Of a stretch of DNA of 40,894 nt, positions 37,375 to 38,496 are shown piece by piece. Made by a program: the position numbers and the translations under genes. This stretch comes from an uncultured Enterobacteriaceae bacterium (GTDB lineage: Bacteria > Pseudomonadota > Gammaproteobacteria > Burkholderiales > SG8-39): positions 1 through 40,894 of the forward strand of contig CAYOVM010000007.1 in the NCBI GenBank assembly GCA_964407355.1. Reading direction: 5' to 3'. The notes beneath the pieces were generated by a model. The model saw nothing but the letters and a program-made list of their open reading frames with translations, had not been told where the DNA came from and searched no databases. The number at the start of each line of letters is the position of its first letter. Within the stretch, counting starts at the first letter, position 1.

Positions 37375-37391
<17 letters not shown>

Positions 37392-38496
37392 TCCTGCGCA
37401 GGTCTTCCACCAGTCCGACCAGGCGCGCCGTCTGGCGCTCGATCACCTCCACCGCCTTGCGCGGGTCCTCGTCGAGCCCGGCCTTCTTCAGCGCCCCCAC
37501 GGAATTGCTGATCGGCCCGAGGATGTTGCGGAACTCGTGCGCGAGCATCCCGAGGAACTTGCGCGTGCGCTCGTCGGAGGCCTCGTGGCGCTTCTGCTCG
37601 GTCAGGTCCGCGAACAGGAACAGCTTGTGCCCGTCGAGCGTGGTCATCGTCGCGAGCGCCACCGGCCGCTCGCCGTTCGCGCTGCGCAGGCGCAATTCCG
37701 CCTGGGCGTGGTCCTTCGCCTGGAGCATCGCCTGGAACGCCGGCCGGTCGCTCTCGACGATCAGCTCCGCGAGCCGGCTGCCGACGAGGTGGCGGTGCGG
37801 CGTGGCGACCATCGCCTGGAAGCGCTCGTTGGTATAGACGATCTCGCCGGCGCCGGAAAGCGTGACGGCGCCCTGGCGCATGCGCTCGACCATCACCCGG
37901 TACGGAGTGTTCGCGGACTCGAGCACCAGCACCTGCTTGTCGTCGACCACGAACGCGTCGACGGCGCCCTTGCGGATCGCCTCGAGCGTCTCTTCGGCCT
38001 CCCGGAGCTCGTCCTTTTCCGTGCGCAGGGCGGTGACGAGCAGCGTCACGAAGTCGTCGCTCGCGCTGACCATCGACACGCGCGCCGGAAGCGTGCCGCC
38101 GTCCCGGCGAACGAGCGCGAGCTCGATGTCGCGCTGGCCGGCCCGGCCCGACTTGAGGACCTCCGCCAGCCTGCGGTCCGCGGGGGCGAGCCACTGCTCG
38201 AGCGGCGTGCGAAGGACATCGATGGGGGAATGCCCGAGCATCGCCGCGAAGCTGTGGTTGGTGAAGAGGATGTCGCCGGAGCCCGAGATCGTCACGGCGC
38301 CTTGCTGCATGTCCTCGACGATCTGCCGGTAGCGCGTGTACGCCCCGGAGAGCAGCAGCACGCGCTTCTGCTCGTCGGATTTGCCGACCACCACCGCGTC
38401 CACCTCGCCGTGCCGGATCGCCAGGCAGATCTCCTGCGCTTCGCGCAGGCTCTCGCGCAAAGCGGCGATCTCATGGTCGGGGTTGGATGTGCTCAT
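37375..38496 (-). CDS. PAS-PAS-DHp (HisKA) protein lacking a catalytic HATPase_c domain
   Basis: 373 aa. It is an internal duplication of (LREAxE..xAIRxGxVDAxVV ... MxQGAVT(I/L)SGxGxIx(F/Y)TN) PAS units. H-box FLGMLAHEFRNILGPI (His codon 37537-37539). DHp helix 2 reads [22 protein letters not shown], then TAA at 37375-37377. Confidence 0.8.

Follow-up and report, generated by a model that had tools for sequence, protein, structure and literature searches.

A kaiC-kaiB-linked PAS-PAS-DHp protein without a kinase ATPase domain

In KaiA-less KaiBC timers outside the cyanobacteria, the neighboring PAS kinase is the assumed output. Here, we describe a kaiC-kaiB operon whose third gene encodes such a neighbor without its kinase part. 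The operon lies in a 40,894-nucleotide stretch of DNA from an uncultured bacterium (contig CAYOVM010000007.1 of GenBank assembly GCA_964407355.1), henceforth termed the window. The product of the third gene comprises two PAS domains and the helical hairpin of a dimerization and histidine phosphotransfer (DHp) domain, and lacks both the catalytic ATPase (CA) domain and a receiver (REC) domain (Table 1). Because it has no ATP-binding domain, this DHp-only protein cannot phosphorylate itself, and since the ATP-using domain of its partner has been lost, the timer has no kinase of its own through which to signal.

A reading of the window made from its letters and open reading frames (ORFs), the sequence-only reading, had described a gene behind kaiC-kaiB that encodes two PAS units and a DHp domain and stops after DHp helix 2; layout and domain order proved accurate in every checkable detail. 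Pfam aligns residues 312-368 with positions 3-59 of the 66-position HisKA profile (E 7e-11; score 42.5 bits, cut-off 26.9), and an AlphaFold model (mean pLDDT 75.6) contains two PAS folds and helices 299-338 and 343-369. As helix 2 ends at residue 369 in this model, the chain is predicted to stop four residues past it. Ahead of the first PAS domain are an N-terminal helix and the motif G-E-V-D-A-V-V-V. Around the phospho-acceptor position, His320, the residues Glu321 and Asn324 are present and Pro328 is kept, with Ile325 in place of the usual Pro five positions after the His (H+5).

The claim that neither the protein nor nearby frames encode an ATPase domain held in every search. The 373-aa protein has no Pfam match to HATPase_c, HWE_HK or HisKA_2 even at E<=1, and NCBIfam kinase models align to it only up to the DHp region. 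Alternative-frame ORFs across positions 36200-37837 gave no Pfam match, and a six-frame scan of the whole window for a G1...G2 motif found nothing. Tblastn with 10 CA domains of the nearest full-length relatives returned no match when run against the window and 22 orthologous loci (290 kb in total); in 51 control loci, these queries did find matches. Pfam likewise detects no KaiB-family match in the protein, whose N-terminus is a helix followed by PAS, and no HPt domain (PF01627), the monomeric four-helix type of phosphotransfer domain. We found no existing record of the exact sequence. A sequence search of the PDB produced only a spurious DARPin match, Foldseek against the PDB retrieved only generic tandem-PAS proteins with low TM-scores, and the homologue clusters, in which no cultured organism is represented, bear no other name than 'PAS domain S-box protein'.

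Table 1. Features of the Kai operon and its immediate surroundings, in window coordinates.
Feature	Position	Strand	Evidence or remark
kaiC (KaiC2 type, 587 aa)	38855..40618	-	Pfam KaiC, E 3e-110; NCBIfam NF006799, 755 bits (cut-off 408)
kaiB (107 aa)	38535..38858	-	Pfam KaiB, E 7e-25
DHp-only gene (PAS-PAS-DHp, 373 aa; without catalytic ATPase domain, without receiver)	37375..38496	-	third operon gene
PAS domain 1 (residues ~55-156)	38029..38334	-	Pfam PAS/PAS_9, residues 55-144, E 8e-17; model strands 66-156
PAS domain 2 (residues ~203-305)	37582..37890	-	Pfam PAS_4 (E 4e-9)/PAS_7; model
DHp (HisKA) helical hairpin (residues 299-373), terminus DLRRINPKE	37378..37602	-	Pfam HisKA; model
His320 codon, phospho-acceptor position, in H-E-F-R-N	37537..37539	-	H-box LAHEFRNILGPI
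ABC ATPase gene, convergent	36732..37391	+	17-nt overlap with 3' end of DHp-only gene (TTATTCCTTTGGATTGA)
Stand-alone receiver (146 aa)	36277..36717	-	Pfam Response_reg, E 1e-14
Promoter-like block 5' of kaiC	40672..40706	-	TTGCTT, 17 nt, TACCCT; sigma-70-like; conserved with L083-85 (alignment)

The three genes are closely packed. At the kaiC stop and the kaiB start, the two genes share 4 nt (ATGA), the DHp-only gene begins with ATG after a gap of 38 nt and ends with TAA at 37375..37377 (-), and no terminator-like site was found between kaiC, kaiB and the DHp-only gene. Read from its sequence, the KaiC product has two Walker A motifs (residues 52 and 293), a Ser-Ser pair as phosphosites (432-433) and a coiled-coil-like C-terminal tail of ~90 aa. 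A C-terminal tail and two Ser sites are traits of the KaiC2 subgroup (PMC10076222); by its C-terminal extension, its two Ser residues and a kaiB gene next on the same strand, the window KaiC is of this type.

Homologues were collected by a search over 5.8 billion proteins and a second search over 1.84 billion cluster representatives. At least 120 proteins at 51-96% identity were retrieved, nearly all of them 354-386 aa long with PAS and HisKA but no HATPase_c; the few shorter entries look like partial sequences, and among cluster representatives (50%-cluster level) short members reach down to ~42% identity. They derive from metagenome-assembled genomes (MAGs) of uncultured soil Burkholderiales and from one bin labeled Steroidobacteraceae. 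The stop occupies the same position, behind DLRR[IV]NPx[ED], in more than 150 independently assembled homologues with identities of 42-96%. In 18 aligned sequences it directly follows the C-terminus LVEDLRR(I/V)NP(K/R)(E/D), and in the 18 His-keeping loci of the set L001-L019 it comes exactly 54 residues after the His, with DLR[RS][IV]NP[KR][ED] as the last residues; the exception in this set is L015, in which the His is replaced.

Pairwise ratios of nonsynonymous to synonymous substitution rates (dN/dS) against four relatives, all probably inflated by high GC content at third codon positions, are 0.25-0.32 for the whole DHp-only gene and 0.30-0.37 for its DHp segment. The neighbors give 0.20-0.26 (kaiC), 0.14-0.29 (ABC gene) and 0.14-0.25 (receiver). 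By these values the DHp-only gene is under purifying selection similar to that on kaiC, and by its shared terminus and selection it is a genuine conserved gene, not a pseudogene. The comparison of orthologous loci that the sequence-only reading had proposed thus shows the truncated form to be conserved, with the gene and its DHp segment under purifying selection, and close relatives not to be full-length. A contrasting case is found in Frigoriglobus (L030; 1614-2357 and 2996-3343), where the partner stops 55 residues after the His. There, REC-coding sequence follows ~640 nt past the premature stop and tblastn with the CA-domain queries finds a match; judged by these remains, that partner is a frameshift or pseudogene.

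The association with the Kai genes is equally persistent. The kaiC-kaiB pair lies directly upstream of the DHp-only gene in 22 of 22 orthologous loci with enough flank, and every homologue whose context was examined sits directly downstream of kaiC-kaiB. Synteny within the lineage extends over all of PNPOx-APH-enolase-kaiC-kaiB-DHp-ABC-...-LivK. Divergent short members (P0130, P0126, P0122) lie in other neighborhoods, with fatty-acid desaturase, GDPD and FG-GAP genes and no ABC gene, yet still directly follow kaiC-kaiB, some with overlapping start and stop codons. As judged from gene order, the conserved unit is therefore the kaiC-kaiB-DHp-only triad, kept across unrelated neighborhoods. A kaiC-B-PAS/HK (histidine kinase) operon has been published previously (PMC4794148), and Pseudomonas putida KaiC binds the PAS domain of the neighboring kinase (bioRxiv 10.1101/2022.01.26.477890).

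The convergent ABC ATPase gene, although present in 20 of the 22 orthologous loci (the window, also positive, is not counted), was rejected both as a functional partner and as a substitute ATPase: synteny is just as strong for PNPOx, APH, enolase and LivK, and the ABC gene is absent from the divergent loci P0130, P0126, P0122 and L015, where the NPxE terminus is kept. Its presence is ordinary lineage synteny and thus no independent evidence of a functional link. Its 219-aa product is LolD/FtsE/YbbA-like, scores under all NCBIfam equivalog cut-offs and has no permease gene beside it in the window. The ABC gene starts 14 nt from the start of the divergent receiver gene; the receiver has D8-D10, D64, S94 and K116 all intact, and a terminator-like hairpin is located at 36288-36271. 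Elsewhere in the window, a giant ORF of up to 2735 aa (17199-25406, +) combines an N-terminal receiver with ~5 GAF domains, several PAS domains, GGDEF and EAL. It is a receiver-controlled cyclic di-GMP enzyme and, at 12 kb from the Kai operon, a candidate phospho-target. A second cyclic di-GMP protein, PAS-GGDEF-EAL, is encoded by an 859-aa ORF at 8739-11318 (-). Three TctC/Bug-family periplasmic receptors occur within 13 kb (90-1061, 6956-7957 and 11894-12907, all -); expansions of such receptors are typical of Burkholderiales, which agrees with the labels on the MAGs that carry the homologous loci.

Where the short form came from is indicated by its more distant relatives. These kaiCB-linked proteins are hybrid kinases that combine HisKA and HATPase_c with a C-terminal REC, and occur in Planctomycetota, Gemmatimonadota, Methylomirabilota, Chloroflexota, other Betaproteobacteria and Methylobacter. 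Among full-length proteins, two-PAS forms of 550-713 aa align with residues 7-370 of the window protein at 35-40% identity. More broadly, the window protein shares 30-41% identity with kaiCB-linked partners from Planctomycetota, Verrucomicrobiota, Cyanobacteria, Chloroflexota and other Proteobacteria. The partner in alphaproteobacterial loci is a PAS-HWE kinase, and cyanobacterial partners, which are long multi-PAS kinases (L040-L065), share only the PAS part. An N-terminal helix-PAS module thus recurs in kaiCB-linked partners with differing transmitters (L038, L070, L072 and cyanobacterial L040-L065), suggesting that the module rather than the transmitter is Kai-specific. As the common Kai-linked element, this module fits both the published operon and the PAS binding of P. 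putida KaiC.

In neighbor-joining trees, short and full-length proteins separate with a bootstrap of 75/100 when all taxa are included; without the long-branch outgroup L053, support is 100/100 for all columns and 57/100 for the PAS region alone. The short proteins end in DLRRINPKE where the full-length forms have DLLDINRLNQGK..., and the TAA stop falls three residues after an IN that aligns with the IN of DLLDIN, which continues into RLNQGK in full-length relatives. As the nearest full-length relatives are kaiCB-linked hybrids, the short form represents a derived loss of CA and REC. Tree split, shared truncation point and shared terminus together favor a single event in which both domains were lost.

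Possible traces of the lost REC are present in some loci. In six of them (L010-13, L018 and L019), a stand-alone 128-aa receiver gene (e.g., L010 2796-3179, -) is convergent with and abuts the DHp-only gene, co-directional with the ABC gene; its product is 42-51% identical to the hybrids' REC and 87-100% conserved among the six loci. At L015, a partial receiver without beta1 and the acidic Asp pair follows the stop of a His-to-Ala DHp-only gene in another frame (9059-9397, +), and this sequence may be left over from the deletion that took out the CA domain; alternatively, it may represent a frameshifted fusion. The window receiver was also considered as a split-off ancestral REC and rejected, being only 26-33% identical to that REC type.

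Loss of the kinase domain was accompanied by changes within the DHp hairpin itself. Across 166 short and 132 full-length sequences aligned to the DHp profile, Pro at H+5 is present in 130/132 full-length but only 2/166 short proteins, the latter carrying Ile, Met, Leu or Val. The His is kept in 155 of the 166 short proteins, 147 of which have Asn at H+4. The 11 His-less short proteins have E, A, S, C or Q instead, and at H+4 carry Asp (10) or Ser (1) but never Asn or Thr (0/11). Within the window subclade (at least 51% identity), His320, Glu321 and Pro328 are invariant and Asn324 is at least 90% conserved. That His and Asn are so strictly kept or lost together suggests that His-centered chemistry is still selected in the window subclade, whereas it appears, from the substitutions, to have been abandoned in side branches; the Glu at H+1 persists in the His-less proteins as well.

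The His-less proteins include several deep branches (P0122, P0123, P0124, P0126 and P0140) and L015, which as a second kaiCB locus shares its MAG with the His-containing L005. In the closest relatives of the window (L083-85), a 281-aa one-PAS His-less paralogue lies just upstream of kaiC, itself preceded by an extra kaiB in L083 and L084. At the window edge (40619-40894, -), the 3' end of another ORF, with its stop at ~40745-40747 and ending in NPKE, aligns to this paralogue with several frame-breaking indels. It may be a decaying copy, cut off by the window end. A GC-rich hairpin (40709-40736) sits between this remnant and the promoter-like block of kaiC.

We tentatively favor, with somewhat less than even confidence, a Kai-gated DHp dimer that is predicted to act on stand-alone receivers as a phosphatase, a His-phosphotransfer protein, or both. 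The DHp-only protein would pair through a DHp four-helix bundle, and its PAS/N-terminal part would sense the state of KaiC/KaiB. His320-Glu321-x-x-Asn324 would then act on receivers charged by other donors, as a phosphatase, as a two-way His relay for phosphoryl groups like Spo0B, ChpT and PhyT, or as both, such that the timer would gate the removal or rerouting of phosphoryl groups and not their creation. The parts needed for this are those the protein has kept: the two PAS domains, a module common to Kai-linked partners across phyla, and a complete DHp hairpin. For EnvZ and NtrB, the DHp domain by itself is enough for response-regulator phosphatase activity, which the His enhances but is not required for, and a Pro(H+5)Ala exchange lowers kinase and phosphatase activity while leaving phosphotransfer near wild type (PMC3510030). 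The kinase-derived Spo0B, ChpT and PhyT, which have no ATPase activity, are phosphotransferases, PhyT being also a phosphatase (PMC5898713). Receiver genes adjacent to the triad are frequent, of the window type in 7 loci and of the L010 type in 6 loci. The window receiver is a plausible phospho-partner, and its type recurs at the window position only in the closest relatives L003, L005, L006 and L083-85.

Several observations weigh against this proposal. The Pro at H+5 is lost throughout the short clade, and in CrdS its loss lowers phosphatase activity (PMC3510030). His-less sisters and the upstream paralogue are still kaiCB-linked, so the core role need not involve phosphoryl chemistry. About one third of His-retaining loci have no receiver gene in the sequence available, the window receiver is distant from the ancestral REC type, and the hairpin-loop region, which normally sets response-regulator specificity, varies among orthologues. 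Both dimer formation and Kai binding by the DHp-only protein are themselves predictions.

The main competing explanation, to which we assign a lower yet substantial probability, is a non-catalytic adaptor or anti-kinase, in which the PAS-PAS-DHp dimer works by binding only and His320 is retained for structure or binding. Its role could be to connect KaiC/KaiB to a partner, to keep a receiver sequestered, or to pair through its DHp domain with a full-length kinase or a His-less paralogue, as RetS does with GacS; RetS inhibits GacS through DHp contacts for which its own phosphorelay residues are not needed. An adaptor would account for the replacement of His by A, E, S, C or Q in several deep branches and in the 281-aa paralogue, all still beside kaiB or kaiCB, and for the occurrence of His-containing and His-less paralogues together in some genomes (L005 and L015 in one MAG; the tandem genes of L083-85). 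The clade-wide loss of Pro H+5 likewise suggests relaxed catalytic geometry. What binding alone explains less well is the invariance of His320 and Glu321, and the near-invariance of Asn324, across orthologues of at least 51% identity. The complete absence of Asn and Thr from the 11 His-less proteins also argues that the kept His serves chemistry.

We consider it improbable that the protein is one half of a split kinase whose CA domain, borne by a separate HATPase_c protein or by a paralogous kinase from elsewhere in the genome, phosphorylates His320 in trans. Such an arrangement would resemble the in-vitro reconstitution of EnvZ from domains A and B, or CheA3/CheA4, and the isolated CA domain of EnvZ does trans-phosphorylate its isolated DHp domain. 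However, no CA-like coding sequence was found in the window or the 22 orthologous loci (290 kb in total), and the autokinase-supporting Pro H+5 is lost. Glu at H+1 is not diagnostic here because even His-less members keep it.

A further explanation would make the clock ATPase itself part of the kinase, and is very unlikely. In the His-retaining subclade, the KaiC/KaiB complex might charge or discharge His320, the kinase being split between clock ATPase and DHp-only acceptor. In a milder version, without a clock ATPase acting as kinase, KaiBC output may need no kinase at all, and the DHp-only dimer may be a clock-gated phosphatase or adaptor tuned by heterodimers with His-less paralogues. Direct donation, with the RecA-type ATPase KaiC replacing the GHKL domain as phosphoryl donor to His320, is likewise very unlikely. 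The sequence-only reading had proposed KaiC as phosphoryl source together with a genuine DHp-only protein tied to KaiCB; the persistence of the triad bears out the protein and its tie, but not the donor. Nothing speaks for donation except that the operon is tightly linked and that the protein has no other ATPase domain. Yet that linkage is equally tight in His-less members and older than the CA loss, the ancestor having had its own CA domain, so it does not support donation. Our literature searches brought up no precedent. KaiC phosphorylates its own Ser/Thr residues at buried subunit interfaces, and transfer from a phospho-ester to His is energetically uphill. Least probable of all is a kinase decapitated by recent rearrangement, frameshift or misassembly at the ABC junction, the other possibility raised by the sequence-only reading: although a convergent gene covers the stop codon with its 3' end and a real frameshifted full-length partner exists elsewhere (L030), this is refuted by the dN/dS values, the absence of a CA remnant in any frame, and a terminus shared by more than 150 independently assembled homologues, including loci without the ABC gene.

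The lineage represents a natural experiment, in which the PAS domains, the DHp hairpin and the place in the operon have long been kept while the ATPase and receiver were discarded, and in side branches the phospho-His as well. This suggests that the indispensable part of a Kai partner is the PAS-DHp scaffold with its contacts, not the autokinase. As a small, soluble and easily synthesized protein, the DHp-only protein, combined with KaiC, KaiB and the 146-aa receiver, offers a system to ask whether a clock can signal purely by phosphatase activity, phosphotransfer or binding.

Among known systems, the KaiC2/KaiB2 hourglass timers of Rhodopseudomonas palustris and Rhodobacter sphaeroides are similar in gene order, in the KaiC tail and Ser-Ser pair, and in the helix-PAS start of the third gene. 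There, however, the third gene encodes a complete kinase, whereas CA and REC are gone here. Complete-kinase third genes are of the HWE type in the alphaproteobacterial loci sampled and HisKA-HATPase_c-REC in most other phyla. Compared with a functional HisKA kinase, the DHp-only protein has the H-E-x-x-N box but, in its sequence, neither HATPase_c nor Pro H+5. The cyanobacterial outputs CikA and SasA share Kai-gated control of response-regulator phosphorylation, which for the DHp-only protein is proposed, and CikA, as summarized in bioRxiv 10.1101/2022.01.26.477890, is chiefly a phosphatase when bound to KaiB-KaiC. Both are complete kinases, and neither the KaiB-like (thioredoxin-fold), KaiC-binding N-terminal domain of SasA nor the GAF domain and pseudo-receiver of CikA is found here. 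In full-text literature searches aimed at Kai outputs and at kinase-domain-less kinases, we found neither a Kai-linked partner without a kinase domain nor a series leading from hybrid kinase through a DHp-only form with His to one without.

Outside Kai systems, Spo0B, ChpT and PhyT resemble the DHp-only protein in having a kinase-derived DHp hairpin with a His and no ATP use, and form the dimer that is predicted here; they pass phosphoryl groups from one receiver to another. They differ by a C-terminal, degenerate CA-like alpha/beta domain, whereas here nothing beyond NPKE follows helix 2 and PAS sensors are present. The isolated DHp domains of EnvZ and NtrB are the same minimal catalytic unit, with phosphatase activity that depends on Thr/Asn at H+4 (PMC3510030), but are laboratory truncations of natural proteins that keep a CA domain, which boosts phosphatase activity. 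RetS of Pseudomonas aeruginosa provides a model for the His-less members through regulation by DHp-DHp contact, although it is a full-length membrane hybrid kinase unrelated to Kai. The closest counterpart in domain content is the recognized class of 'HisKA, no HATPase' proteins, non-enzymatic HK-like proteins mainly of archaea (PMC5847659, Galperin et al. 2018; PMC1183210). It has been described mainly in Archaeoglobi and Methanomicrobia, with a proposed phosphatase or phosphoacceptor role (PMC5847659), and by its domain composition the DHp-only protein fits the definition. The suspicion of the sequence-only reading that the architecture had not been described as a Kai output therefore stands as far as Kai systems go, but both this class and the kaiC-kaiB-PAS/HK operon are already known. 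Members of the class, listed in P2CS as 'possible incomplete histidine kinase', likewise combine PAS sensors with a C-terminal HisKA and a conserved His, but have no Kai linkage. The protein described here, by contrast, is betaproteobacterial, fixed to kaiCB, traceable to a full-length ancestor and accompanied by His-less offshoots, and so also bears on what 'HisKA, no HATPase' proteins do.

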